Positions 1,857 to 36,948 of a DNA stretch of 37,887 bases are shown piece after piece. Under the pieces are notes generated by a model. The model worked only from the letters and a program-made list of their open reading frames with translations, searched no databases and had not been told where the DNA came from. The DNA is taken from the IMG/VR virus record IMGVR_UViG_2875703104_000002; one strand, written 5' to 3'. The stretch's first letter is position 1. Each line of letters starts with the position of its first letter. A program made the position numbers and the translations under genes. The stretch is from a virus (taxonomy: Duplodnaviria; Heunggongvirae; Uroviricota; Caudoviricetes).

Positions 1857-1906
1857 TGAAGCGGCGCACGAAAAACGCGAAAGCGTTTCACGATAAATGC
1901 GAAAAC
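1857..1906. mobile_element. attR: Mu right-end (attR) terminus with MuA-binding sites R1/R2; terminal dinucleotide 5'-TG at 1857-1858
   Basis: Sequence TGAAGCGGCGCACGAAAAACGCGAAAGCGTTTCACGATAAATGCGAAAAC matches the 50-bp Mu R-end used in MuA in vitro transposition (from memory); host DNA immediately to the left. Confidence 0.85.
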
Positions 1907-1933
1907 TTTAGCTTTCGCGCTTCAAATGAAACA

Positions 1934-1955
1934 GCAGTATTAATTACTGCTTTTT
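1934..1955. terminator. Hairpin (GCAGTA-ttaat-TACTGC) followed by T5, overlapping the mom stop codon; possible bidirectional terminator
   Basis: 6-bp inverted repeat with 5-nt loop at 1934..1950 followed by TTTTT on plus strand and preceded by an A-run (U-run on minus strand). Confidence 0.3.
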
Positions 1956-2697
1956 ATTCATTACATGGGGATCGCTTAGGGTATGGCTGAACCTTGAATA
2001 GTTTGGTATTTAGCCGCTTCCTTGCTCGCTTGTTCAGGAATCTGATGTAGCGATACTGATTAAATTTGTGCACCACGGCACGCTCTTTATTAGCCCGTAA
2101 ATACACGCCTCGTTGTCCACCTCGCTTAATCGCGTTCATCGTTATCTCGTGATACCACTCACCATCCAGCTCGTAGAATGTACTTTCATGACTGCCAATA
2201 AAATCAAAATTCGACGCCTGATACACAACGCCTGCGCGTCCGCAGCGTTCGTCTGCAAAGGACTGAACCCACTCCACTGACGGATACAGTAACCTGATGG
2301 TTTTCAGTGCATAACTGATGACCCGTGATTCAGAGTTGCGGGGCATGTCATCGTGTAGCCACATGCGGTTCAACTCCATATAGCCCCGGTTATCCGTTTC
2401 AAGCACGACACGACGACCTGAGTTGGGGTTAAGGGCATATCCCCACTGGAGAACGCCAACCAGATCGCGTCCGCTGAATACTCCCAGGTGGAGGTAAGAG
2501 TTATTCACAAAACGGCGGGAATAGTGCTTTGTCTGAATAATTGTGCGGGCCAGCCAACAGGATATGGTTTCAACGCGCAGCTCCTTTGAACCATAGCCAA
2601 CAATCTGGCCTTCATACTCAATAACGCACGGTTTCGTCAGAATGCGTGATTTCTTCTCTTTTCCCACAATGTTTCTCCGTGGGATGCTCGCAGGCAT
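1954..2697 (-). CDS. mom: Mom DNA-modification (anti-restriction adenine modification) protein; true start may be downstream of the ORF-track start, near the com stop
   Basis: 247-aa ORF as last gene before the R-end, overlapping the 3' end of the com zinc-finger ORF, preceded by a GATC-cluster regulatory region; matches Mu com-mom architecture. Confidence 0.8.
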
Positions 2698-2806
2698 TCA
2701 GCATTATGATGTGACGTTTGCAACGCGGACACCTGATTTCAATGTGAACAAAGGAATCCGCCTTAAATAACAGTTTGTTGCAGTTTTTACAGCGAATTGA
2801 TTTCAT
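2618..2806 (-). CDS. com: Com, zinc-finger translational activator of mom
   Basis: 62-aa ORF with CxxC...CxxC zinc finger (CKNCNK...CPRCKRH); strong SD AGGAGG 5 nt upstream of ATG; overlaps mom. Confidence 0.8.
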
Positions 2807-2930
2807 CTCACCTCCTTTGCATCAATTCGCCACTATCTTAAAAAACATCATGAGTTGAGTGTGGTTATTGGGGCATAATCGATCTGTATTACCGATCGAT
2901 TCAATTGATTCGATCGTCGTTTTCTATATG
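2807..2930 (-). promoter_or_regulatory. mom/com late promoter region with three clustered Dam GATC sites (2881, 2894, 2912)
   Basis: Three GATC within 35 bp, 75-110 bp upstream of the com start; known Mu Pmom architecture (Dam methylation blocks OxyR; C activates). Confidence 0.6.
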
Positions 2931-3062
2931 TGTTCGCTACGGCTGGGTATCATTTCCGACGAGAATAAACAAAAATTAACCGAGTGGATGCTCTATGCGC
3001 AGAAGGTCGAATATACAGACACCTCCAGCCTGCCAGTAACGTTTCCCGAACAACCAGAATGA
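2931..3062 (+). pseudogene. 3' remnant of an alternative tail-fibre assembly gene (U'-like), convergent with U; N-terminal part missing
   Basis: Plus-strand ORF ends ...LTEWMLYAQKVEYTDTSSLPVTFPEQPE, resembling the conserved C-terminal motif of tail-fibre assembly proteins (compare U C-terminus ...[26 protein letters not shown]); only about 44 codons of homology, upstream part runs into the mom GATC region. Confidence 0.5.
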
Positions 3063-3090
3063 GAGAAGGCCCGGTATCGGGGCTTAATTT

Positions 3091-3618
3091 TTACTCTGGT
3101 TTTTGTGGCCATTCTGGCTTTGCTGTATCCACACGGCTGACCAGAACGCTGTAGCGTTCCCAGGCTTCCAGTCGTGTGCGCTCCTCATCCGTCGCCATAT
3201 TCAGCCTGACAGCGCGTTCCAGCTGCTGGATGACTGATTCAGCTTCGGAAAGCAATGCGGCCTTTTGTAATTCGGCCTGCTGTTGCTGCTCGTCTGCCGT
3301 ATAAATCCGTTTAACCACAGCTCCGTCCTTAAACAGCCACTTTCCTGAATCGTCGGCGCGACGATTGGCGGTGATATCGGGAACTTCGACAACGCTGTAG
3401 CCTGTAGGGTCCAGTGTTGAAGCGTCTCTGGTTACGGCCACAATAATATTGTTCTCGTCGTAAAGAATTTTTATTGTGTCCGGCTGAAAGTTCTTCACTT
3501 CCTCATACCAGTTTTTTCCGTCTTCTGACCACAGCCAGGCAACATTAAAATTTTTTGTTAGCTGATATTGCTCAACGGTTTTTGGATTGCCGGCGACAAT
3601 GTTTTTTAAATGCTGCAT
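3091..3618 (-). CDS. Tail fibre assembly protein (U-like, Tfa family)
   Basis: 175-aa ORF directly downstream of the tail fibre gene; C-terminal Tfa motif W-x-x-Y-x-x-L-x-x-VDT-x-x-PEWP. Confidence 0.8.
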
Positions 3619-3621
3619 AAA

Positions 3622-6266
3622 TTACACCTGTGACACGTTGTACCACGTTCCGTTAATTAACTTTTGTATTGGTCTGAATACTGCCGGATCGTCGCCATCA
3701 ACTTCGCCGACAATGCCAAGCCCGGTAATTACATGGCCTGATTTCTCATACATCACGCCTTTTTGCATGGTCTGAACAACACGTGTGCCAAGTCGGACAT
3801 CCCTCACGTATCGGCCATCAAAATTGCCGTAATCCGAGGGGTTAACGCGCCCCGTAATATTTACGGTTTTATTACTCTGAATGCTGCCGGAAACAAAGCG
3901 CATAACATGGACGTTATTAGCATAAACATCCAGATTACCATCACCATTTTGTTTAAAGCCCGTGTCATTATCACCCAAAACAATCGAATTACCGCCAAGA
4001 GCACTGGATGTTCCTATACCCAGAGCACCATTCAATTGACCACCAGATAACGGCAGTGCACCGACATCTCCCGCTGTAGGTTTTCGCGTTGTGGTATAAA
4101 ACTCAGACCAGTCAGCCTCGAATCCGTAACCGTCACGAGCAGAACGATAAAAAATACCACCGTTCTTATAATTAACGCGAAACTGGGCGGCGGGACAACT
4201 TCCTTCACCGATATTAAAATGAAGAATTAACGTTGATGCCCCACCAATATTTGCGTTATAGGCTCCGCTACTCCAGTTCCATCCAACGGCTTTATCATTC
4301 GCAACGGTGTCTCCTGTTTTTCCTGAAGCAAATGCACCAATATTTTTCGGCGTCAGGTTAATATCTGATGTTCCATCAAACGAAACGTTATTAATTTTAT
4401 TCCTGAAGCAAATGCACCAATATTTTTCGGCGTCAGGTTAATATCTGATGTTCCATCAAACGAAACGTTATTAATTTTACGGGCTGTTTTCAGCTTTGTT
4501 GCTGTCGCCGCATTGCCGGACAGTTCACCAGAAAGGCCAGCACTGAATGCCTGTTTCGCGCCCCATGTCTGGGCTTCGTCAATGATTGGTACTCGTCTTG
4601 TTGTGATCGTGCGGCTTCCCGGATTTCCTGAAATGCGCACCATAAAAAAGCGGTAGTTGGCTTTACTTACAGTGCTGCGCCATACATGCATTGAGCGCCC
4701 CGTACCGGAATCATCACTCGGACCAACTGCGATGTTTATCAGGTTGCCATCAATGACGCCCCAGTCCATACCGTCGGGAATATTGGTCATATTATCCAGC
4801 CGAACGGTTATCAGACTGCCCGGCACAAAATCGTAGGTCTGCCAGTCCAGACTGGATAGTTTTGCCACTGCGCCACCGATGCCCAGATTCAGGGGAAGTG
4901 AATAAGATGTGTAAACTTCCCGCCATTCGCTCCATGAGCTGCCGGTAAAAACGCGCTCAAACGTGCGACCTTTAAGGGTTGTACCTGTTCCGGCAGTTGT
5001 ATAACGCTGCCATACGTTAACACCATCAAAGCGCCTCAACACTTCCAGAATACCGAGGACTGTCACGCCGTTTCCGTCCAGTATTGGACCGTTGGTTGCT
5101 TTACCTGTAACGCTGTAAATACCTGGTGAAGTCACATCATTCAAATCCCCGTCGTAATAACGACTCTCTGACTGATGACCGACTCTTAACCACGGTTCCC
5201 ACTGTGGGTTCTCTGCATTCCATGTAGCAGAAAGGCAGCGAACATATACGTTCCCACGGCGGGTCGTATAGCGTTGCGTGCGTGAGTACCCACCACCCTC
5301 AAGAACTTCAAGGAGTCCCTGACCATAACTTCCTTCTTCCGGATAGTTGCGGTCAAATGAAGCGATAGAGCCACTACTGTTTCGCCATAAACCAAGATGC
5401 TCTGCGCCTCCTAGCGTGTTCAGGTCAATAGCTGTGCTCAGGGGGCGTGTTGCAGACTGAATCTGACGCCAGTAGCTCCACGGACCGTCTGAGCCATTCC
5501 AGGTGCCAGAAAGATTACGCATATAAACATTGCCAGTTCTGGTGGTATAACGCTGCATTCCGGAAAAATTACCGCCATTGAAGACCTCAAGAACACCGAC
5601 TGCACCGTCTTCAGGGAAATTTTTCTCCAGTGTTGCGTTGGAGGATGTGGATTTATACCAGACACCCACATAAGCCTTAACTGGACCAAATGTATTGATA
5701 TCAGCATCAACCGGCATTTCGCCGTTGTTTTTCATAAACGTCAGGCTGGTAACGCCAACATTGTCCAGAAAAGCTGATTTATCCTGGATATCTGCACCAT
5801 TCTGATTTTTCGCCAGACGTGAATTTGCGTTGTCATTTGCTGCCTTGACCGCTTTTGGCGTTGCGGCGAGTGCTTCGGATGTGCTGTTGGTAGCACTACT
5901 TAGCTGAACCAGCCCCTTTTTGCTCACGCTGGCATCATAAATACCCAGATTTTCACGTGCTGTGCGCTGTGCTGATGCCCCGGCAGTTTTTATTTCGCTG
6001 AGGTTATTTTTTATCAGCAGCGCGTTCTTGTTCATGATGGCTTTAATGGACAGTGCAAGCTGGTTTAATTTTGTTTTATCCGGTTGAATACCGGCTTCTT
6101 CCAGCGTGTTTAATAACTCCGCCTGCACAATATTAAACCAGTCCATGCCGGGCCATGTGATAACATTATTCCCGTCACCTTCTGAAAACCAGCGAACGAT
6201 AGCACTACGCTGGGCGGATACGGGCGGCATGACGGTTACGCCGCTGTCGTTATCAATATAAAACAT
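3622..6266 (-). pseudogene. Tail fibre protein (S-like), frameshifted by an 80-bp tandem duplication: 637-aa N-terminal ORF 4353..6266 plus out-of-frame C-terminal continuation 3622..4320
   Basis: Hand translation shows minus-strand frame continuous from 4398 to 3622 with no stop; ORF1 and that frame encode the same peptide KINNVSFDGTSDINLTPKNIGAFASG across the two repeat copies; removing one copy fuses them into about 854 codons. Confidence 0.8.
4320..4479. repeat. Perfect 80-bp tandem direct duplication (copies 4320..4399 and 4400..4479) inside the tail fibre gene
   Basis: Both copies read TTCCTGAAGCAAATGCACCAATATTTTTCGGCGTCAGGTTAATATCTGATGTTCCATCAAACGAAACGTTATTAATTTTA; 80 is not a multiple of 3. 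Confidence 0.97.
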
Positions 6267-11520: not shown

Positions 11521-14007
11521 TTACCAACCTGTAATGTAGTTATCGCCCGCGTAAATATTCAGCCCCATACCATCCTCGGTGACGCGGGAACTGGTCAGAC
11601 GTAACCCCTCGCCGAGTTCGACGCGCAACGAGGCTTCCGCATTGACTTTTTGTTCCTGCGGTTCCTTATCCGTGGCCGTCCATTTCTGATACAGGTCGGT
11701 TACAAAACCGCCCAGATACTCCCCGGCGACACTGCCCAGCGTGGCACCGGCAACCGTACCCAGCGGTCCGGCAAGGCTGCCAACGGCACCGCCGAGCCAT
11801 GCACCGGCTGTACTGCCAATTGCGCCTGCTTTTTCATGGGTTGACGCCTGTTCATCCATCAGGACGGGGGCAAGCTGGAGTGCCCCCATTACCGGGCCAC
11901 CCAGACGTGACAGGGCACGACCGGCACCTTTCCCCATCCAGCCCAGCGCCCCGGCACCTTTTGTCACAACCCGACCGATCGCACTGCCTGCAAGTTTGTT
12001 TCCGATACCGGAAAACCACCCGCCAACGGCACGCCCGGCATCAGCCAGCTTTCCGACCGTTCCCGTAACCAGTTGCCCGGCAGCACTGCCTGCAAGCCTG
12101 CTCAGAAGACCGGATTTACCGGGCAAAGGCTGTGGCGCAGGGCGTGGTATTACCGGCACGCCCGGAGATGGCACGGGCTGCCTGTTTCCGGCACCGGAAA
12201 GCAGTCTGCTGACAGTACGCCCGGCATCCGCCAGCGTTCCTGCCGCTCCCGTAACCTGCTGCGCGGCAGCGCTGCCTGCCAGCTTGCCCGGAAGACCGGA
12301 TTTAGCGGGCAAAGGGCGTGGCGCGGGGCGTGGTATTACCGGCACGCCCGGAGATGGCGCGGGCTGCCTGTTTCCGGCACCGGAAAGCAGTCTGCTGACA
12401 GTACGCCCGGCATGCGCCAGCGTTCCTGCCGCTCCCGTCACCTGCTGCATGGCAGCGCTGCCTGCAAGCCTGCCCGGAAGACCGGATTTACCGGGTAAAG
12501 GTCGTGGCGCGGGGCGTGCTGCTGCCGGAACGCTGGGTGGGGGTAATGGTGCAGGCCGTGCTGTTACCGGTACGCCGGGTGGGGGTAATGCCAGTACAGG
12601 GCGTGGTGCAGGTAATGCCAGCGGCTGTGGCCCGGACAGCAATAACGGCTGGCGGGGTAACAGCGTGGGCATTCTTCCGCCGCTCCGTACGCGACGACCG
12701 CCGCCACTCCCGTAGCCACCAAATCCACGGGGCCAGTTGATGACAAACACACGCTGAATGCCGATACCCTGCAACAGCGTCTCAGACGTCATGGCATCCG
12801 GGACCGGCAGGCCTGCCTGCCCACGTTTGCGGTTTCGCATCCAGCGCCACATACGACGCCCGGTTTTAAACGGATAACTGGCAACCTGCCATGAGGGTTT
12901 TGCCACGGCCCAGCCTGCTCTCAGGGCTTTATTGGCAAGCCAGACAGACACCAGAACAGCAGCCAGTTTTTTCAGGCTGACAATATTCTGGTCAACCCAT
13001 GCCAGCGCATCTTTACCCGGTTTCAGCCAGCGCCATAATTCCTGCGCCGCGATTTTTACCGTTCTGAACGTGGTCAGAAATTTCTGACCAATGTTTTCTG
13101 CCAGTGCGTCAAGTTCCCCGGATTTATCCGCCATGTCGTGCCAGTTAAGCACCCGGCGCATCTCGTTCTTGATTTCTTCAAAGGGGCCGCTGTTTGCCAC
13201 CTTTATGCGAAATTCAAGCAGGTTGGCTTCCATCTGTGCGAACATCCCGTCCCAGGAGTTCATCGCACTGGCTTGTGCACCTTTTGACTGTTCTGACAGC
13301 GTTCTGAATACCGTCAGAATGGATTTCATGCCCAGCTTGCCCTTTGTACCCAGATCACGGATTTTTTTAACGTCCGTTCCCGTTGCATCCGCCAGCGCCT
13401 GATAAACATTGATACCGTAACCGGTCAGCAGGTTGGCATCCGCCGCCGTGATTTGCTGGCGGGCAAACATCTGTTTCAGTTGCAGTGAGGCACCCTGTGC
13501 AGTGGGTAAATCCCAGCCGTGCATGGCCCCCTGATCCTGCAACATGGTGATGAACTGTTTCGTCTGTTCATCCGTCATGCCGAAGCCTTTCGACGAACGG
13601 ATCTCATCCAGAACACCACTCAGCCCCCACGTGGTGTCCTTCGCGTTCTGCTTCGCCCAGGCCATCATAGCCTGCGCTCTGACCTTATCGCCGTGATACA
13701 GCGAGTTCATAGCGATGATCTGCTGCTCACGCTGGGCGGCTGCACCAATAAACAGTTTATTGGCGGTGTAACCCACGCCAGCGATACCCAGCGCCCCGGC
13801 TGACAGCATTCGGAATGTACGGGTTGACAGAGAACCCATTCTGTCAATTGCACCAGAAACGCGCACAACCTCCATACGCAGGGCTCGCAGGGAACTCTGC
13901 CCACTACGGGACAGGGCGTTTATCTGGCTCGAATACTGGCGGGAACGCCGGGAAAGATTGCCATTAAGATCAATAATGACAGACGCCTTTAAGCGTTTCC
14001 CGGTCAT
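11521..14007 (-). CDS. Tail tape measure protein
   Basis: 828-aa ORF between tail chaperone and baseplate genes; Gly/Ala-rich C-terminal region, Pro-rich linker and internal 62-aa tandem repeats. Confidence 0.85.
11959..12516. repeat. Three tandem 186-bp (62-codon) repeats inside the tape measure gene (12331..12516, 12145..12330, degenerate 11959..12144)
   Basis: Near-identical DNA units starting TGGTATTACCGGCACGCCCGGAGATGG at 12145 and 12331; encoded units RPAPRPLP(G/A)KSGLPG(R/K)LAGSAA...PSPGVPVIP. Confidence 0.85.
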
Positions 14008-22102: not shown

Positions 22103-23585
22103 GGGTCAGCATGTCGATAAGTTCTGCATCATCCATCTGCGGATATAATGAAGCGGCTTTGTTCATGGCGGCTTCCGGGCCATCTTTCAGCACAGAAAAA
22201 ATGACGGGTTTCAGCAGGGGATCAACCGAACGCTGCCAGTCTTCCGGTGAGACGCCCATCCGGTCGATATCATCCTCCTGCGGGATATCTTCAGCGGATA
22301 ATGCAGCCTCTTTCTGCGGACCGTTATCCATGACGACCGGTTGAGCAGTAAACACGGCTTCATCACCGACCGGCTGCGGAATATGGAGTTTTTCCTGTAT
22401 CCAGGAGACGGGAATACGCATTCCCGCCGCCAGTTTCGGAATGGCGTCAGACAGTGCCGTAATATCACCCGCTTCGCTGGTATCAAATACAATGCCCGGC
22501 AGGCGGTTAATATCAATGGTGCTGTCACTGTTCAGTGCCAGCAGGGGATAAATCAGGTCACGGTTAATACTGCGGGCAAGCTGGCCCACATCCGCGTTAC
22601 GGATTTCCCGGCGAACCTCATCATGCACTTCACCCAGCGACCGTGCACCTTTATCGCCAGCCTCTGTGGTCAGGGTGCCGCCCAGAATGGCTTTTGAAAT
22701 CGCTTTTTCTGCCCAGCCAATCATCGCCATAAAGGGGTCTGACTGACCATCTGCAGCGCTCTGAAAATCCAGCGTCATCCCCATCGGAATAATGCCACCG
22801 GCACGTCGCCCGATATCCATCACAGCCTGCATCAGCGTGGCTTTCTCACGGTTCGTGGAGCCGGTCGGATATTTACCGACGCGCATGGGAAGTCCGTAAA
22901 TTTCCAGGAACTCTGCAAAATCACGCACGGAATAGTTTTTAAAAATAAAAGGCCAGATAAGCGTGCGCACAAGGCCATTGGTGCCGACATATCCGGTGCG
23001 GGATTTGGCCCGGTGCATAAACCAGCCGAACGGTTGCAGCTCCAGCCCGTGATAAGACGCATCACGCAGGCGTAATTCGTTCAGATTGTCGGGGTTCGCG
23101 CAGAACAGCGCCGGATCGCGATGATGCAGCGCCACCGGCACGCGCATTTTCCCCAGCCACCCCCATTCAATCTCCTGCATGGAATAGCCCTTGAGAATGG
23201 CATCACCGGCATCAAACAGGGCATCTTCAAACCACGCCGCATCATGCAGATATTCATTCAGCATGTCGGCGTCTTTTTTCTCCTGTGCGCTGGCATCACG
23301 TGCCGGAGCGATGCGCCATTCCAGCGCCTGAATGGCAAGGCGGCGCTTGCTCAGTTCGGAAAAAAGGTGGGTGTCCTTTTCTTCCATATCAAAGGCCAGG
23401 TCAGCCTGTGCGGTCAAATCACCGCGTTCGGCATCACGCAGCATCTGCGCGGCCCGGTTCGGCGTCACACCACTGGAAGGATGCTCCTGCGTGCGCTTCA
23501 TGACCATTGCCAGCTCATCGCTGCGGGTCTGCATTTCATCGTCAAAATCAAACGGCTGCCCGGAAATATCCAGAATACGGCCCAT
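22047..23585 (-). CDS. Portal protein (Mu H/gp29-like)
   Basis: 512-aa ORF directly downstream of large terminase with overlapping stop/start. Confidence 0.8.
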   Translation of the reverse strand: MGRILDISGQPFDFDDEMQTRSDELAMVMKRTQEHPSSGVTPNRAAQMLRDAERGDLTAQADLAFDMEEKDTHLFSELSKRRLAIQALEWRIAPARDASAQEKKDADMLNEYLHDAAWFEDALFDAGDAILKGYSMQEIEWGWLGKMRVPVALHHRDPALFCANPDNLNELRLRDASYHGLELQPFGWFMHRAKSRTGYVGTNGLVRTLIWPFIFKNYSVRDFAEFLEIYGLPMRVGKYPTGSTNREKATLMQAVMDIGRRAGGIIPMGMTLDFQSAADGQSDPFMAMIGWAEKAISKAILGGTLTTEAGDKGARSLGEVHDEVRREIRNADVGQLARSINRDLIYPLLALNSDSTIDINRLPGIVFDTSEAGDITALSDAIPKLAAGMRIPVSWIQEKLHIPQPVGDEAVFTAQPVVMDNGPQKEAALSAEDIPQEDDIDRMGVSPEDWQRSVDPLLKPVIFSVLKDGPEAAMNKAASLYPQMDDAELIDMLTRAIFVADIWGRLDAAADH

Positions 23586-25306
23586 TACCAGCCCCCTCGT
23601 TCAAACTGGTGATAATCATCAAAATCATCGTTATCAACATCATCACCACGGTGGCGTGGTGGCAGCGCCTGTATGCTGTCCTCGTCGATAACAAAACCAT
23701 TCATATAAGACGCCCTGACAGCCATACAGAGCGCCACGGCAAAGTCGCCATGTCGTCGGCCTTTACCGCCTTCATCTTTTGTGCGCCCCTTATCAATCTG
23801 CGGAATACCTTTGTCCACCTTGATGTGGAGCAGGTCATCAAGTGTGGTCTGGTGCCGGGCAATCGTGATGTTCTGCGCTTCAAACTCGCCTTTCAGTTTC
23901 GGCATCCACTCCTGATACCAGGATGCGGTCAGATTCACACAGTCGATCATCTCCGGGCCATAAATCAGACGGGCGGCTTCTGCCAGATAACCGCCGTTAC
24001 CGGTGGCATCAAATGCAGCGCCGGTAAAACGGGGCAAACGGGACAGAATGAATAAAAGGATTTGTCGCTGCTGGTCATAGGTCACATTACGCAGCTCCAC
24101 GCGGAAACATTCGCGTTTGCGTAAGTCAGGAGTGATGGCAAGCGGAACAAACACCGTAAGGTCACCACGGCGTGCAAAGTCTTCGCCCAGTACGTGTTTA
24201 TTGAGCGGCGACAGCGCATCGAGCAACGGGAGCAGCTCCTGTTCACACCAGTCCTGAACGATGCCGTGGCGCATTTGTGGTGTCAGCGATTCAAAATCGT
24301 CCGGGGCTTCAAAACGCAGAATCGGGATATCCCGCGCTGGCGTCATGGCGGCTTCAATCAGCACGCGTGACAGATAAGCGCCCCCGGATTTTTTAGGAAT
24401 GCAGCCGTATTCCTCGTCGGCACTCTCTTTATTCGGCGCATTCCGGTACAGGCCATCACGCCAGGCTTTTTCCGCTTCCGGCGACCACGGCTGATTCGTG
24501 ACGTAACAGATACGTCGGTACAACCCGTCAGCGATGGCATCATCCAGCGTGATGCGGTGAACGCTGTAATCCTTGCGCCCCTCGCGCGCATCCTGAATGT
24601 ACTGGTTAAACAGGTTATCGACGCCGTTATGTGTCGATATGATCCGCACGCGGGCACCCCACATGGTGAGAGCAAAAGCCGCTTTCAGCAGTTCGTCCAG
24701 GGCTTCATGAAATGCCGCCTCATCAATCACCACGTCCCCCTGCAAACCACGCAGGTTAGACGGACGGCTTGACAGCGCCTGCACCTTAAATCCGCTGTTA
24801 GGGAAACGGATCATATAAGTGAGGATTTCTTCTTTTTTGTCGCTGTCCCAGAAGGTCTGCTCCCATACGTCAGCCTTTGCCAGTTGGTTAAAGGCGCGGG
24901 CAAACAGGGCACAGGCGGCAATGTATTCCAGCGCCATTTCCTGACGGGAACCCACATAAAAAACGTTGCGACCGCCACGGCGACGCGGCTTTGCTGCCGT
25001 CATGACATTGCGGCCCGCTTCGGCCCATGTCAGACCGGTACGACGGGATTTTTCAGCAATACAAATCTGGCTTTCATCCTCAAACCAGCGGCGCTGATAG
25101 CCCAGAAAAACCGGTTCATTAGATGGCTGGGCGTTAGTGATGTCTGTAACGATCTCGACACCAAGTTTGGTTGCTTCTTCCTGAAGATCAATCTGACGGG
25201 GTTCACTTGACGGAATCAGTTTTTTGCCCCGGCTATTTTTTTCATACCCCATTATTTTTTCAGCCATAATACTTCGGTTTTCTTTAAATACCTGAGGGAA
25301 CGTCAT
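23585..25306 (-). CDS. Terminase large subunit (Mu gp28-like); alternative start at 25267 (MAEKIMGYE...)
   Basis: 573-aa ORF at the head of the structural block; acidic C-terminus; the ATG at 25304..25306 shares two bases with the plus-strand ATG at 25305..25307. Confidence 0.85.
   Translation of the reverse strand: MTFPQVFKENRSIMAEKIMGYEKNSRGKKLIPSSEPRQIDLQEEATKLGVEIVTDITNAQPSNEPVFLGYQRRWFEDESQICIAEKSRRTGLTWAEAGRNVMTAAKPRRRGGRNVFYVGSRQEMALEYIAACALFARAFNQLAKADVWEQTFWDSDKKEEILTYMIRFPNSGFKVQALSSRPSNLRGLQGDVVIDEAAFHEALDELLKAAFALTMWGARVRIISTHNGVDNLFNQYIQDAREGRKDYSVHRITLDDAIADGLYRRICYVTNQPWSPEAEKAWRDGLYRNAPNKESADEEYGCIPKKSGGAYLSRVLIEAAMTPARDIPILRFEAPDDFESLTPQMRHGIVQDWCEQELLPLLDALSPLNKHVLGEDFARRGDLTVFVPLAITPDLRKRECFRVELRNVTYDQQRQILLFILSRLPRFTGAAFDATGNGGYLAEAARLIYGPEMIDCVNLTASWYQEWMPKLKGEFEAQNITIARHQTTLDDLLHIKVDKGIPQIDKGRTKDEGGKGRRHGDFAVALCMAVRASYMNGFVIDEDSIQALPPRHRGDDVDNDDFDDYHQFERGGW
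25241..25270 (+). promoter_or_regulatory. Putative sigma70-like promoter for the plus-strand gene (-35 TTCATA 25241..25246, -10 CATAAT 25265..25270)
   Basis: Hexamers with 18-bp spacing read by eye about 35 bp upstream of ATG; lies within the 5' end of the terminase ORF on the opposite strand. Confidence 0.3.
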
Positions 25307-25793
25307 GTCACCAAAAGCAATAAAACTACTTGAAATATTTTGTGAAACAGAATTAAAGCAATCTATGGATACTGTTCAATTTGTCTCAATAAACGGATGG
25401 GAAACACTTCAGCGCCTTTGGCCCCTGAATGAACGATTCACACCACGCATAGAGCAAATCAGAACGATTAGCTACAGAAAGCAATTTGAAAAAGCCGCAG
25501 ATAACGCCATTGAGGATTTTCTGATGAAGGATGATGACTGGTCAGAAATTCCATTAGTTGTCTGGCGTGTTCTTCTGGAACGCCATAATCAAGCAACGAT
25601 TCTCTGCGTAACTAATGCACTCGCCAATAACACCGAACTTATGCACATCCCTGTCGGACTTTCTCAGTCGGCACAAACAAAATTTGCAGTAGCTTATTTG
25701 TATTACGCAATGAAGCTCCCATATAAAGTGCTCGGTGAATCACAGCTTGACATTGAATCACCGTTTGAGTATCTGAACACCCGGCTACAGTAA
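25305..25793 (+). CDS. Hypothetical protein (162 aa), reverse-oriented accessory gene between terminase subunit genes; function unknown
   Basis: Only plus-strand ORF in a non-coding gap of the minus-strand late operon; SD GAGGGA 6 nt upstream of ATG; strongly AT-rich (first 60 nt about 27% GC); followed by hairpin terminator; no TM segments or catalytic motifs recognised. Confidence 0.75.
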   Translation: MSPKAIKLLEIFCETELKQSMDTVQFVSINGWETLQRLWPLNERFTPRIEQIRTISYRKQFEKAADNAIEDFLMKDDDWSEIPLVVWRVLLERHNQATILCVTNALANNTELMHIPVGLSQSAQTKFAVAYLYYAMKLPYKVLGESQLDIESPFEYLNTRLQ

Positions 25794-25852: not shown

Positions 25853-26443
25853 CTACGCTTTACCCAGCAACACATCACGGATACGCTGCTCCAGTTCTTC
25901 GCTGATACCATCCTGCCCGCGCAGTTCTTCACTGACGGCGTTTGCCGCTTCTTCTGCGAATGCCTGGCGGATTTCTTTCTCGCGCCGGTGGCTGGACATT
26001 GCCGTGGATTCCAGACGCTGTGCCGCCAGCATGGCATTTTTCAGCAGGTCAATATCCACGTCAGATTCCGGGTTTTCGATTTGCCGCATCATGGCCTTAA
26101 AAAGCTGGCTGCGGGCCATTTCCAGAATCAGCTTTGTGGTTTCTCCCATTGGCTTGTCGCCAAGTTCTGCGGTCAGTGCTGACGTCATTTCACGCATCTG
26201 TCGCAGGTTATGGCCTACCTGTTCGACGTTCGTCGCGTAACGGTTCAGACCGGAACGGGAGAGTTTCATCTCATCCGGCAGGCCAGCGTCTTCAATCAGT
26301 GCGTTAATTTCTTCCAGAATGCGGGCCTGTGGGATCGCTTTATCACGCAGCATTTCATGCAGCGTTTTACGTACGTTTTCTGGCAGTAAATCCACTTTTG
26401 AAGCCCGGCCCCGTGTTTTCCTGTCCATCACGCCTCCTGTCAT
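25853..26443 (-). CDS. Terminase small subunit-like DNA-binding protein (Mu gp27-like)
   Basis: 196-aa ORF immediately upstream (in transcription order) of the large terminase region. Confidence 0.65.
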   Translation of the reverse strand: MTGGVMDRKTRGRASKVDLLPENVRKTLHEMLRDKAIPQARILEEINALIEDAGLPDEMKLSRSGLNRYATNVEQVGHNLRQMREMTSALTAELGDKPMGETTKLILEMARSQLFKAMMRQIENPESDVDIDLLKNAMLAAQRLESTAMSSHRREKEIRQAFAEEAANAVSEELRGQDGISEELEQRIRDVLLGKA

Positions 26444-29963: not shown

Positions 29964-30511
29964 TGTGCCATCCTCCGTGTCTTTCTGGCATGGGCATAAG
30001 CCGCCATCATGGCATCATAGCCGCGCAGTTCACGACCGGACGGACTGACCGGCAATGGAAGCCCGTGACGGGAAAAGGCTTCACGAATACAGCGGATGTG
30101 CCACTGTTTGAGTGTTTCGAGGACTGTCAGCAGCGTGTCGCCATGACACCACGCCAGTGTGGAAACACCCTGTCCACCGTTGCGTTTCGCCGTCAGGCGT
30201 TGAACGTATCTGTCCAGCGCCACATCACTGCCGTCGGTAATAAACCCGTCTTCTGCCATCTGCTGCCAGACTTTGTACACCTTCTCGCGGGGCGTGACAT
30301 GTTCCTTAAAGCGTCGGCGTGGGTGTTTATTCTGCTTCTTAAAGCCGCGTTCTTTCATGGCATCGAGCACCTGTTCCAGTTGCGTGACCGTCAGCTCGCG
30401 GCAACTGATTTTGCCCGTTTTCTGCATCAGAAAAGCGCGGTAAGTGTCGTCGTCGAGTTGTAGCTCCCGACGGGCGACATGGATTAATTTAATCAGGGAT
30501 GTGCGACTCAT
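29960..30511 (-). CDS. gemA: GemA-like protein
   Basis: 183-aa basic ORF directly upstream of mor with 4-bp overlap. Confidence 0.7.
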   Translation of the reverse strand: MSRTSLIKLIHVARRELQLDDDTYRAFLMQKTGKISCRELTVTQLEQVLDAMKERGFKKQNKHPRRRFKEHVTPREKVYKVWQQMAEDGFITDGSDVALDRYVQRLTAKRNGGQGVSTLAWCHGDTLLTVLETLKQWHIRCIREAFSRHGLPLPVSPSGRELRGYDAMMAAYAHARKTRRMAQ

Positions 30512-30530
30512 GATCGTACCTCCGGAAAGA

Positions 30531-30550
30531 GGCGGTGCTGCAACACCGCC
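30531..30550 (-). other. Hairpin (GGCGGTG-ctgcaa-CACCGCC) in the 100-bp gap upstream of gemA
   Basis: 7-bp perfect inverted repeat; no clear U-run, so possibly an RNA processing/stability element rather than a terminator. Confidence 0.3.
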
Positions 30551-30613
30551 TGAATTTACACATCAATCAGAGTGGATTTTATGGAAAATAATGTTTTAGT
30601 TTCATTATTCATA

Positions 30614-30796
30614 TTATTCACCTTCACAATTCATGCACGCCGTGTCATCGCCCATATCGCAGTGGTTGCATTTCTGCCCACCACAATGAGGGCACTCTTT
30701 CAGATATTCAGGGTTTTCATTACCGCAGGTCGGACATTCCTGCTTCACAGTGGTAAATGTCCCCAGCCACGAATACGATGTTTCATTGTTTTCCAT
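30614..30796 (-). CDS. Small zinc-finger protein (60 aa)
   Basis: Eight Cys in CPTCG...CPHCG...CNHC...CMNC arrangement. Confidence 0.55.
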   Translation of the reverse strand: MENNETSYSWLGTFTTVKQECPTCGNENPEYLKECPHCGGQKCNHCDMGDDTACMNCEGE

Positions 30797-32785: not shown

Positions 32786-33205
32786 TCAGTACAGCAGAGG
32801 CTCGCGCAGTGATGCCGGAATATGCCGCAGCGATAACTGAACCGCTTTCAGGGCAAGCGAGGAATAACAGCAGCGCGCCCAGCCTTTTGCCATTAACCGG
32901 TAATCGCGCCAGATACGCTGCCACATTTCACGGGCTTCAGGGTCTGATGCGCAGATGTATTCCCGGTCCATGACGTACTCCCATAAATCCACGTTGAACG
33001 CACCGCCAAATGCAATGGCGCGGGATATGCTTTCGCCGCAATAACGCGCACAGATGCTGTAATGGTCGAAAGCAATCAGGTAAGTCTTTTCACCACAATC
33101 ATCAACTTTTCGGGCGCAAATAAACTCGCGTAATTCACCACCGTTGTTATTGCGTTCCTGAATTCGGATTAATGCCTGAATTTCATTTCGGATTTTGACG
33201 TTCAT
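32786..33205 (-). CDS. Hypothetical Cys-rich early protein (139 aa)
   Basis: ORF with multiple Cys and aromatic residues. Confidence 0.5.
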   Translation of the reverse strand: MNVKIRNEIQALIRIQERNNNGGELREFICARKVDDCGEKTYLIAFDHYSICARYCGESISRAIAFGGAFNVDLWEYVMDREYICASDPEAREMWQRIWRDYRLMAKGWARCCYSSLALKAVQLSLRHIPASLREPLLY

Positions 33206-33225
33206 TGTCAGCGTTCCTTTGCGAA

Positions 33226-33495
33226 TTAATGTTTAACCGCATTCACCGGATGTGGTACTAAATCACATTCAGCCTCCATACCCACTTTCTTCATAGTGGT
33301 CAGCATCTCATCTTTGGCCTTTTTAATAATTTCAGGAGCCATAGTCAGGACGATATTTGCCAGTAAATCATGAGGCCCGGTATTTTCCGTTGGCGAGATA
33401 TCTGCAAGACATGCTTTTGCATCCAGAACTTCTCTGCGCCCATTGCAACCTTCACTACTTTCCAGCCATGTAAACTCAAAGATAACTTTTGCCAT
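33226..33495 (-). CDS. Hypothetical early protein (89 aa)
   Basis: ORF in the semi-essential region. Confidence 0.5.
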   Translation of the reverse strand: MAKVIFEFTWLESSEGCNGRREVLDAKACLADISPTENTGPHDLLANIVLTMAPEIIKKAKDEMLTTMKKVGMEAECDLVPHPVNAVKH

Positions 33496-33506
33496 TTTGC
33501 GTCTCC

Positions 33507-33761
33507 TTATTGATTCTGAATAACTGCGCTGGCTTTTACCTTCGCGCCTTTTACCTGCTTAAAGAAAACCGCGCTGCACCACGGACAACATGCAAAGGAG
33601 TCCCATACTTCATTTTCTGGTGAGCATTGCGTCATAATTTGCTCTTTGCATTTGGGGCAATTAAATGCAGTCAGAGCCACATTGTTATTCTGTACCCGTT
33701 TAACCCATTCAATATATTTTTCAGCTTTAGTACACATCGTTATCTCCAGATAATCTGGCAA
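33507..33761 (-). CDS. Zinc-ribbon early protein (84 aa)
   Basis: CPKCKEQ...CCPWCSAVF motif. Confidence 0.5.
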
Positions 33762-33967
33762 CCATTAAGACGGGCCGTCCATACAGAACGGGCCACCCCG
33801 GACTTATGCTCCATAATTCTGACCGCGTTTTTTACCAGTTCCACCGGTGGGTAAGTGATTTCAAGAATCGGACGCGCCACGCCGAGATATGATTCATTTA
33901 CATGACTCCCGCGCGCCTGTAACCAGTTCTGCGCATCCGTTGCCATTTTTATGTTTCGGGCTATCAT
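33740..33967 (-). CDS. kil: Kil-like protein (host killing/cell division inhibitor)
   Basis: 75-aa ORF immediately downstream of B, the position of Mu kil. Confidence 0.5.
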
Positions 33968-33982
33968 AATTTCTTCTCCTTC

Positions 33983-34921
33983 TTAATTACGCAGCAGCGT
34001 TGAAATATCAACGTCCAGGTCTAATTCACGGAAAGCCTGACGCAGATAATCTTCGTTAACACGCTCACCTTTACCGTGAGCCGTCATGGCGGCAAGGCGA
34101 AGTGAATGATTCAGAATGCGAAGCGCACCTGGTTTCTGCGCAATCTGCTGTAATAACTCCAGTTCATTTTCGCCGTTAATCTGCCAGGCATCCGCAATAG
34201 CTTTTACATCGGCTTTTTTGGTTTTATTAATTGCAGTGCGCTTTGCAATACGGGAAAACAGACGGGCAAATTCAACCGTTCTGTTACCCCCCGTCATATT
34301 TGAATAAACCCGGTGATTTCCCATCAGCACAAGGCCAGTGCGGGTTGATTCCTGTAACAGGCGGAGTTCTTCCAGAACTTCGGCACCAAGATGATCAGCT
34401 TCGTCGATGATAACCAGCCCCTGTGTACCTTCAAGGCGACGTCGCAGGGCGCGGGAGAGCGGCCCTTTACGGCGTGGTGCGTCATTCATTCCCAGCTCAA
34501 ACGCCAGTTCAGTAAGACATTCCAGAACGCTGGCACAGGATGGCGTAATGGTGATCATCCAGACATTGTTATTGGTGCGGCGATATTCACGGGCCGCTTC
34601 GGTTTTGCCCACACCAGGATTGCCACATACAACAGCAATACTTTCAGTCAGGCTGGCAAAACGCATACTTGTCCAGATTTGTTTTACCGTCTGCGTTTCC
34701 ACAAAGCGGGGCGGTTCAGGTAGTTCTGCAACTGCATGATATTTTTCCAGCCAGCGTTGCAGAATTTGTGAAACACGCTCGTTATCCCCGTTGTACTTAT
34801 CATTGATAAAACTACTGATAGTTCCGGTAGAAAGTCCGCTCTCAAGAGCAATTTGTTTAAAGGTGGTTTCTTCATTTTCTACAAGCGTGCGCAGTCCTGC
34901 GCGAATATCGGAAATATTCAT
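33983..34921 (-). CDS. B: Transposition target-DNA activator MuB (AAA+ ATPase)
   Basis: 312-aa ORF with Walker A GNPGVGKT and N-terminal HTH; directly downstream of the transposase. Confidence 0.9.
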   Translation of the reverse strand: MNISDIRAGLRTLVENEETTFKQIALESGLSTGTISSFINDKYNGDNERVSQILQRWLEKYHAVAELPEPPRFVETQTVKQIWTSMRFASLTESIAVVCGNPGVGKTEAAREYRRTNNNVWMITITPSCASVLECLTELAFELGMNDAPRRKGPLSRALRRRLEGTQGLVIIDEADHLGAEVLEELRLLQESTRTGLVLMGNHRVYSNMTGGNRTVEFARLFSRIAKRTAINKTKKADVKAIADAWQINGENELELLQQIAQKPGALRILNHSLRLAAMTAHGKGERVNEDYLRQAFRELDLDVDISTLLRN

Positions 34922-34959
34922 CTGAATAACCTCGTAATTAAATTTTGTTTAAACGTTAA

Positions 34960-36948
34960 TTAAATGGCTTTTTTACGTCTGTTCTGTTCCAGAATATCCA
35001 GCGAATGATTCAGATATTCATCACGCTCAGTTTCGTATTCATCATCACGCTCCTGATTCTTCACCCGTTCCATATTACCGGAAGGCCGGAAAATGCCGAC
35101 AATTCGTGATTCTGGTGCTTCAGGTTCGGCTATCTGCGGCAGCAGCTCTGCCACTTCCAGTGCATCCATTTGTTTCTGTGCCTTAATCGCTGCTTTCGTC
35201 GCAGATTTCAGTTGTTTCTGGCGGCGACGATATTCACGGCCTGCCGCAGCATCATTAAACGCAACAGGTGCCAGACATTCCGCTTCACAGATAAACCGAC
35301 CGTCCAGGGTGTAGCAATAAACCGTGCTGTGTAACTGCTGTGGATCAAATCTGACCACAACTTTTTTCACTCCGGCATTCATTAACGCCATGTTGTAATA
35401 AACGTTTTTCGCACCTTTAAGGGAGCCGCCAACTTTAAGCGCGAACTCGCCTTTACGTGAAACGTTCACCGCCTCGGCAGGCAGTAACAGCATCCGTTTT
35501 TGCTCTTCGGTAGGCTTACGCACAATCGTTCTGGCGTATTCACGCTCAAAAACGTCATCAAACGAAAGTTTGCCTCCGCACATTTCTGTTTCACGGCCTG
35601 TTCTGGCATTGAACATCGCCACACCTTCGGCAAGGGTTTTCAGAAACAGCTCTGCATCAACAGCGCGGTCGCCATAGTTATCAGGTTTTGCCTGCGGATT
35701 AGGCCCCGTATATGCGCCAGCCAGTGCCGGATGCTTATCAACGTATTCCTCAAGCCCACCAACACCGAAAGCACGTTCAACAGGTTTTGCCTGGCCCCAG
35801 CCTTTACCAGCAACAACGCTTGTCCAGTGCATTTTCGCCCCCATCAGTAAAAACAGTCCCTTTGGGTCGTCCTCTTTTACCTTAAAGCGGTAGCGATTGG
35901 GCGCGCCTCCCGTCAGCCATTTATTCGCAGCACCACGGGTGTTATCAATGGTGATGTGAAAATCCTCCGGGATACCGTAGCGAGTCACAACATCCATGAA
36001 CGAGAGGCGAATTGAATCAATGTTCTCGCTCACATCGCAGCGCCAGCCCAGAATTTTTCGGGTTTTCACATCCTGCCAGAACCATGTTTTCGGGCGGATC
36101 ACATCACCGTTAAACCAGCGTACAAAGACGTTATGCAGATAACCGTCGCCGTTGATCCACTGCATGGCGTCCAGGTGTTCCACAGTTCGCTGCTGTGCCG
36201 GTATCAGATGCATCAGTGCATGTTCACCTTCACGGCAGGCAACAACCATTGCCTCGTCCAGTTGCTGAATCCGGCGAAAGGCCGTGGCACGGGAGGGAAT
36301 ACTCCAGCCATGCTCGCGGGCTGCCAGTTCCAGACGCTCATAACATTTGCGGAAGGCGGGTTTTTCCGGTCGCAGATAATCTGCAATCAGAAACTGCCAG
36401 GCATCCTCGTCAAATTCACTTTTGTGAACATTGCGACGGGATGCTCCACGTCCATCAACAAGTGCAGCCGCCCAGTCAGGCTTCGCAAGCTTCTGTACCT
36501 GGTAATACTTGTCCCGCAAAGTGGATGCGCTGACCTGGTAATGCCCTGCAACGGTCGCAAAAGCCGTTTTCGTTGAAATCCCCTGGTTCAGCATTTCGTC
36601 TGCAGCCTGAACAGCAGGCAACCATTTTTCAGCAAGTCTGCGCTGGGAATCGCTGGCGTTATCCCATTTGCTCCACAGTGCCTCACGATCATAATCATGG
36701 GCTTCCAGCGTGGGGCGGGCGATTTCAAAATACCCCTGACTTGTTTCAATTCTCCCTTGTTGCAACAGAATTTCAGCACGTAATGCGACAGGGAATGATT
36801 TGATATTGAATTCAAATGATACACCTTTAGTCCCTGCAACCTGCCTGAACTCCCAGCCTTCTCTTTGTGCCTTACGTGTAATGTTAGTGGCTTGCTTTGG
36901 TAAACCTGCCAAACCGAGCAACTCTTTTGCTGTATACCATTCTTTCAT
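34960..36948 (-). CDS. A: DDE transposase MuA
   Basis: 662-aa ORF; N-terminal winged-helix domain ([30 protein letters not shown]) is paralogous to the N-terminus of the adjacent repressor ([30 protein letters not shown]); acidic C-terminal tail. Confidence 0.95.

Follow-up and report, generated by a model that had tools for sequence, protein, structure and literature searches.

Inversion of the G segment is a textbook feature of phage Mu, which shares the Gin/Hin/Cin/Pin type of switch with the C segment of P1 and the P segment of e14. Laboratory Mu derivatives that are gin-negative and locked in G are engineered or selected mutants with a fixed fibre type and host range. In typical Mu-type prophages of E. 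coli, e.g. those of E24377A, W, SE11 and JNEC-KY180, gin is retained; these prophages have the same com-mom region as the locus described here (97–98% identity) and the same convergent U/U′ junction. In the literature searched, no natural gin-less Mu-type prophage was found described; the search turned up only the SfMu paper, and SfMu possesses gin and the G segment.

Here we analyse a stretch of 37,887 nucleotides (referred to as the window) that shares with Mu and D108 the gene order, the right end, the com-mom operon and the three-GATC control region, but differs from them by the loss of most of U′, S′v, gixR, gin and gixL, as well as by a P2-type variable part of S together with U, an extra 162-aa ORF and a longer tape measure. 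The central U–terminator–U′ joint is 92–98% identical to that of the Gin/Hin/Cin/Pin switches, whereas none of their working parts is retained. Among the Mu-type prophages compared, the gin-less junction is found only in E. coli S6, in 1290 and in the genome of the window. The phenotype expected is the same as for the G-locked laboratory derivatives, except that here the deletion is natural and present at three chromosomal sites. P2-like prophages and phages (e.g. loci L006–L015 and phage PhiR44_2, with UTI89 as an undeleted relative) have likewise lost the switch, and their gpH/gpG genes are 98–100% identical to S-U of the window; they belong to a different phage family with P2 tail and baseplate genes, have another junction sequence and another invertase tail, and lack an adjoining com-mom.

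Prophage identity and gene layout

By every feature that could be tested in its sequence, the window belongs to the Mu/D108-type transposable prophages, lying in reverse orientation. Blastn gave 97–98% nucleotide identity to Mu (NC_000929) over nearly the whole genome, while D108-type sequence (99.7%; NC_013594) makes up the immunity region and the beginning of transposase gene A, and c and ner are likewise of D108 type. A, B and the late genes produced full-length tblastn matches at 93–100%, and the Mu late gene order is kept. Every Mu protein with a counterpart here is matched over its full length, S excepted, with the match of gp42 counted as two collinear pieces across its internal repeat; for Mu gp7, gp14 and gp15, tblastn found no counterpart in the window. 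The Mu right end (attR side) occupies 1857..1953 on the minus strand, base 1857 aligning with the last base of Mu (36717), and window 2936..1857 corresponds to Mu 35638..36717 at 97.7% identity (blastn). Left of 1857, the host flank carries the MFS transporter gene emrD (506–1696) and a 165-aa ORF. At the opposite side, the window reaches D108 coordinate 340, inside the left end, so that 339 bp of the phage left end lie beyond it.

Several minor differences from Mu were observed along the way. The semi-essential-region genes gp7, gp14 and gp15 are replaced by other small ORFs at window 33226–33495 and 30511–30617. The tape-measure gene gp42 contains a 186-bp tandem repeat (12031–12518, 2.6 copies, 91% matches) and is about 2.5 kb long here vs 690 codons in Mu, both matched parts sharing one frame. 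A 162-aa ORF (25305–25793, plus strand) is located in an insert of about 615 bp that separates the terminase genes gp27 (25853–26443) and gp28 (23585–25306). It reads against the direction of the Mu late genes and is not present in Mu. This ORF gave zero tblastn matches among 50,697 phage records, D108 and SfMu included, no Pfam or PHROG assignment, and a weak, sub-threshold PADLOC match to Csx15 (E = 0.008), and a search of 5,426 complete E. coli genomes did not find the insert DNA. Nevertheless, 486 blocks of a large collection contain the exact protein, and in all six places listed it sits at this site of a Mu-type prophage. The ORF may be cargo, either a moron or a defence gene.

Structure of the gap between U and com

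The genes on either side of the gap are intact. On the minus strand, com (2618..2806), the translational activator of mom, aligns over 62/62 residues with Mu Com (96.8%, tblastn), and mom (1954..2697), encoding the DNA adenine modification enzyme, over 241/241 residues with Mu Mom (99.2%, tblastn; Pfam Mom). U (3091..3618, minus strand), the tail-fibre assembly protein, is of P2 gpG type and matches Pfam Caudo_TAP with E = 7.6e-36. The U and com ORFs are 284 bp apart, and the ORF coordinates on which a preliminary description of this DNA had based that distance, 3091 for U and 2806 for com, hold.

Within the gap, a plus-strand ORF (2859–3062) ends in …TEWMLYAQKVEYTDTSSLPVTFPEQPE and matches positions 90–131 of the 131 positions of Caudo_TAP (PF02413) with E = 3.5e-11, over the gathering score, indicating that the domain is incomplete and represented by its C-terminal part alone. 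Residues 132–177 of Mu U′ match this fragment at 87% (46 codons, 2922–3062; tblastn). We define the U′ remnant as 2937..3062 on the plus strand, comprising the last ~42–46 codons (the tblastn match starts at 2922); it is a pseudogene convergent with U, and 3 of its 126 nt differ from the complete U′ of a Mu-type prophage that has gin. The fragment had been recognized before as U′-like and convergent with U, and the domain match, the similarity to Mu U′ and a base-for-base alignment of the junction with Mu bear this out. In the S6 and 1290 relatives, NCBI PGAP already calls it 'tail fiber assembly protein, incomplete, missing N-terminus'. No function is evident for the U′ stub itself, a pseudogene.

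Next to the U′ remnant, the last 11 codons of gin and its stop (…AHIENDDRIN, then stop; 33 bp, 2904..2936, minus strand) overlap the distal mom control region and include the outermost GATC site. On the other side, a hairpin at 3067..3085, between U and the U′ remnant, forms a terminator-like site with folding z-scores of −3.1 and −4.3; it is conserved, and the D108 record annotates two terminators at its position. We consider it a candidate bidirectional terminator, at which the late transcript of S-U should stop before reaching the mom control region.

Alignment to Mu defines the missing part. Window 3620..2936 corresponds to Mu 32973..33657 at 87% identity and runs without interruption through U, the 28-bp spacer with the hairpin and the 3′ end of U′. 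The adjoining 1,980 bp of Mu, a contiguous block at 33658–35637, have no counterpart in the window (blastn); they comprise the first ~131 of the 177 U′ codons, S′v, gixR and gin codons 1–182. The 30-mer across the resulting junction is CAGCCGTAGCGAACRCATATAGAAAACGA. A deletion from mid-U′ through S′v, the right recombination site and gin had been proposed for this locus: the contiguous loss agrees with that proposal, while the break falls not in the middle of U′ but about three quarters of the way along it, at codon ~131 of its 177.

Loss of the inversion system

No serine invertase of the gin/hin/cin/pin family was found in the 37.9-kb window by tblastn with Mu Gin at E values up to 10, the sole match being Gin residues 183–193 at 2936..2904. 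The earlier claim that gin is missing is therefore correct as far as an invertase is concerned and has to be amended for the 33 bp (11 codons plus stop) that remain. The window contains zero gix-like sites within three mismatches; the best gix match in the fibre region, 15/26, equals the shuffle expectation (mean 15.7), and the position homologous to gixL (about 5757) is without gix sequence. Long inverted repeats flanking the fibre genes are not present in the window either. A second, oppositely oriented S′v-U′ cassette is absent, in line with the preliminary description: the window holds the 46-codon U′ fragment and no S′v.

With invertase and gix sites both absent, the fibre cannot be switched by inversion, as had been suspected. 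Judged by its sequence, the locus falls outside the Gin-type inversion systems, their working parts, i.e. the invertase, the crossover sites, the enhancer and the second fibre gene, all being gone. A single fibre type should be made, and host range should be alterable only when the fibre genes mutate or the cassette is exchanged; an invertase provided in trans would find no sites to recombine.

The tail-fibre gene and its P2-type cassette

The fibre gene S spans 3622..6266 on the minus strand. Its N-terminal constant part (5791–6266) is of Mu type and the remainder of P2 gpH type; that the S-U module is of P2 and not of Mu type had been missed in the preliminary description. Homology to Mu stops at 5788, and homology to P2-like gpH-gpG covers 5907 down to 2936. 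The two overlap at 5788..5907 (minus strand) in the conserved fibre 'collar', a Phage_fiber_2 motif (Pfam PF03406, residues 113–154).

The relationship of the cassette to P2-like prophages is close. The exact U protein occurs in 1,768 index blocks in public assemblies, and nine of the ten places listed are P2-like prophages; against the P2-like locus L012, U of the window is 98.6–100% identical at the nucleotide level. Comparing the window with L012 and with the prophage of S6 resolves a mosaic. Identity to L012 is 99–100% from about 5000 in S through U and 93.7% in the U′ remnant. Identity to S6 is 97–99.5% from com through the U′ remnant, 82–87% in U and 80–84% in S 5001–5790, a part in which S6 and L012 are 95–98% identical to each other. 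These mosaic identities indicate that the S-U cassette was swapped with P2-like prophages after the junction had formed. The crossovers would have been placed, on the left, in the fibre collar and, on the right, in the zone formed by the U 3′ end and stop, the terminator and the U′ remnant. Near-identical fibre cassettes in Mu-type and P2-type prophages represent a clear case of fibre exchange across families.

In the window, a perfect tandem duplication of 80 bp at 4320..4479 (2.0 copies; TRF period 80, 100% matches) shifts the frame of S and leaves two ORFs, of 637 and 137 aa. With one copy removed, the gene encodes 854 aa that align collinearly and without gaps with the S6 protein at 92.9% identity. 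Within a large collection, the truncated 637-aa product is found in CP035330.1, the genome of the window, only. Because the two copies are 100% identical and occur in one assembly, the frameshift is either recent or an assembly error; it is a private event, unrelated to the loss of gin. A short TTTT microhomology can be seen by eye at the borders of the duplication, which may represent either a reversible off-state or an error of assembly.

A parallel deletion in P2-like prophages

The remnant-bearing P2-like prophages show such a loss as well. In these, a 141-bp U′ remnant, 14 bp longer than that of the window, is fused to the last ~59 bp of their own Gin-like invertase, implying a parallel deletion and not the same one. 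The 30-mer across the P2-type junction is CCCCATAGGCGATATACAGACTG. Compared with the window, the endpoints are 14 nt apart in U′ and a few nt apart in the invertase, where the breakpoint falls just after the conserved His-Pro codons in both lineages. The repeats before the P2-type break are CCCCATAG and CCCTGTAG, and microhomology at both breaks would account for the near-coincidence of the endpoints. A U′ remnant is absent from P2 itself, and in the P2-like prophage of UTI89 gpG is separated from the tail genes by a complete invertible segment and a Gin-like invertase.

The parallel deletions hint at a recurrent route to a locked host range. We tentatively consider, as a possibility short of a probable one, a deletion hot spot in which short imperfect direct repeats in the U′ 3′ region and after the invertase His-Pro codons would drive losses of about 2 kb independently in Mu-type and P2-type phages, the stub and the terminator then serving as the right homology arm when these unrelated families trade cassettes. 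If so, occasional module exchange would replace programmed inversion as the means of changing host range.

A further rearrangement was observed at the same place. In many P2-like prophages and phages (L006–L015, L003 PhiR44_2, L037 UTI89) the FI-FII-E-T-U tail block is inverted relative to P2 (L018). At its breakpoint, where P2 has neither, lies the invertible segment with its invertase (UTI89) or the deleted remnant (the others).

Origin of the deletion

The observations on the window are probably best accounted for by a single in-situ deletion, roughly 2 kb long, in an ancestor of Mu type, giving rise to a rare lineage that lost the G-inversion switch and later swapped in a P2-like cassette. 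The anatomy of the gap, the absence of gin and gix, the junction shared at three sites and the mosaic identities are direct observations on which this reading builds, while the course of the deletion itself is deduced from them. The ancestor would have been a Mu-type phage with a normal G segment, in which the deletion fused U′ codon ~131 to gin codon ~183, removing S′v, gixR and the invertase along with the Fis-dependent enhancer that lies within gin, and leaving behind the 126-bp U′ pseudogene, the U/U′ terminator hairpin and the 33-bp gin tail. The gin tail would have survived because it doubles as the distal edge of the mom control region. One fibre set would be expressed from then on, and its S-U module would since have been exchanged, by homologous recombination with P2-like prophages, for one of P2 gpH/gpG type.

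As to how the deletion arose, an imperfect direct repeat precedes the Mu-type junction, ACCCAGCCGTAGC in U′ antisense and ACCCCGCCAAAC in gin, as read from the proxy parents Mu and the E. coli JNEC-KY180 prophage; the junction repeat is ACCCNGCC. The presence of short direct repeats before the break in both parents points to a microhomology-mediated deletion, which would have taken place at these short imperfect direct repeats. Aberrant action of Gin at quasi-gix sites was considered and set aside, as the resemblance of the junction flanks to gix half-sites, judged by eye, is poor (8/12 and 4/12).

Two comparisons favour an event in situ. The gin tail is of Mu type and equals the gin allele of the JNEC-KY180 Mu-type prophage, CGAACGCATATAG, which resides in a complete genome with a normal gin and G-segment layout. 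The U′ remnant is nearer to Mu-type U′ (3/126 nt) than to the P2-like remnant, from which it differs at 8 of 126 nt. As a counterpoint, the left endpoint is only 14 nt from the end of the P2-like U′ remnant, and this near-coincidence could reflect a shared origin instead of an independent deletion.

The alternative closest to this counterpoint is that a Mu-type phage exchanged its whole G segment and gin for a non-invertible gpH-gpG-U′ module of a P2-like prophage, through a homologous crossover at the collar on the left and an illegitimate join at the gin 3′ end on the right. The small difference in remnant length, the 98–100% identity of S-U to P2-like prophages and the wide occurrence of the exact U protein among them are all compatible with such an import. 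We nevertheless regard it as unlikely, since the P2-like prophages have the remnant joined to an invertase tail of their own, GCGATATACAG…, the window lacks the 14 bp TGTGAGCCCCATAG and keeps Mu-type gin (CGAAC…) further 5′ than any hybrid with the P2 junction could, and the high identity to P2-like prophages ends at the U stop codon, the remnant being 93.7% identical and closer to full-length Mu-type U′ than to the P2-like sequence. For the same reasons, i.e. the fusion to the P2-like prophages' own invertase and the Mu-type haplotype of the remnant, a P2-like module that already carried the remnant was downgraded as a source.

Distribution of the junction and the question of decay

An in-situ deletion in an ancestral phage is consistent with the occurrence of the junction elsewhere. 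The same junction, with one base different, is present in E. coli S6 and 1290 (assemblies NZ_CP107134.1 and NZ_CP184007.1), whose prophages are 99.8–100% identical to each other over com–S and carry the fibre gene as an intact 854-aa ORF. The S6 copy is a simple insertion between ydcV and patD, the 1290 copy splits ydcO, and the copy in the window adjoins emrD. The finding of the same junction at three chromosomal sites, with an intact fibre gene at two of them, implies that the deletion predates the insertions and is an inherited trait of the lineage. The immunity region of S6 and 1290 is unlike that of the window, and by these sequences recombination between lineages has affected the early regions or, alternatively, the right-end region. 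The S6 and 1290 loci (L019, L020) encode a 695-aa transposase A, with an N-terminus unlike that of the window, and a 194-aa repressor; the window is D108-type here.

The junction is rare. At a coverage of at least 80% of the query, the com region was found in 46 of 5,426 complete E. coli genomes; in 44 of these the match stops exactly where gin continues, with a recombinase annotated there in all that were listed, and the gin-less junction is seen in the other two, S6 and 1290. Among ten distinct genomic contexts examined for the exact Com protein, nine hold gin and two convergent assembly genes, the tenth being the genome of the window. The junction gave zero matches when genome_contigs, viral_contigs and metagenome_contigs were scanned for its exact pattern, and no phage record in INPHARED covers it. 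The junction is known from only three genomes, the frequency estimates resting on complete E. coli genomes and exact-protein look-ups. Judging from this lineage, the switch is dispensable in nature, and nearly all sampled E. coli Mu-type prophages retain it.

The preliminary description had taken the missing switch together with the frameshifted fibre as signs of a decaying or domesticated prophage. On this account, the loss of the invertase would be part of the general decay of a dead prophage and the fibre frameshift a second symptom. S is indeed frameshifted in the genome of the window, and a hallmark function, gin and G(−), is lost. Decay is an improbable explanation, however: the junction is common to copies with intact fibres at two other insertion sites, the frameshifting duplication is private to one assembly and consists of 100% identical copies, the transposase, B, the repressor and the right end are present, and the Mu proteins with a counterpart match over their full length, S excepted. 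The suggestion of decay is thus not upheld, and neither is the use of the fibre frameshift as a sign of it. Instead, the deletion is a real and ordinary inherited trait of a rare lineage that inserts at several sites, presumably as an active phage. For annotation, this means that the fragment is a pseudogene and not by itself a ground for scoring the prophage as degraded.

An assembly artefact, i.e. a collapse of the inverted-repeat-rich G region into a false deletion, is very improbable. The inverted homologous pairs U/U′ and S/S′ may confuse assemblers, but the same junction is found, base for base, in CP035330.1, NZ_CP107134.1 and NZ_CP184007.1, which are independent complete assemblies from different laboratories and countries, and it joins U′ to the non-homologous gin tail, a product that the collapse of a repeat would not yield. 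The notion that the lineage never had gin and a second cassette, and that Mu gained both later, is hardly credible: many Mu-like phages outside the enterics do not have a G segment, but a loss has left direct traces in the truncated U′ and in the end of gin, stop codon included, and the rest of the genome is 97–98% identical to Mu.

The mom control region

The deletion halts just short of the mom control region, which overlaps the gin 3′ end. The promoter and control region (2807..2936, minus strand) has 3–4 substitutions relative to Mu between the junction and com. The cluster of three GATC sites that the preliminary description had placed in the gap is there, at 2881–2884, 2894–2897 and 2912–2915. 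For mapping coordinates, we used the mom promoter primer and the BstUI and PvuI landmarks (PMC3378877). The two PvuI sites that are 18 bp apart (PMC3378877) correspond to window 2893–2898 and 2911–2916. By this mapping, mom transcription would start near 2827, placing the GATC sites at about −54/−57, −67/−70 and −85/−88 and the deletion junction at about −109.

With this numbering, the deletion costs the region one element, a Fis site with its centre at −123, and the sites at −98, −49, −38 and +3 are retained. The −123 site is dispensable for repression in vitro (PMC3378877). Since all Dam sites are kept, along with the C-binding and promoter sequence and the whole stretch between about −109 and the start of mom, regulation of mom by Dam/OxyR, C and Com is expected to be unchanged from Mu. 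The OxyR footprint reportedly ends near −104; if this limit holds, the deletion would stop a few bases outside the footprint. A sigma-70 promoter scan of 2600–3300 returned nothing, as expected for the activator-dependent mom promoter. At window 2853, about −26 in the mom promoter spacer, we observed a private C-to-T change relative to Mu and to S6/1290.
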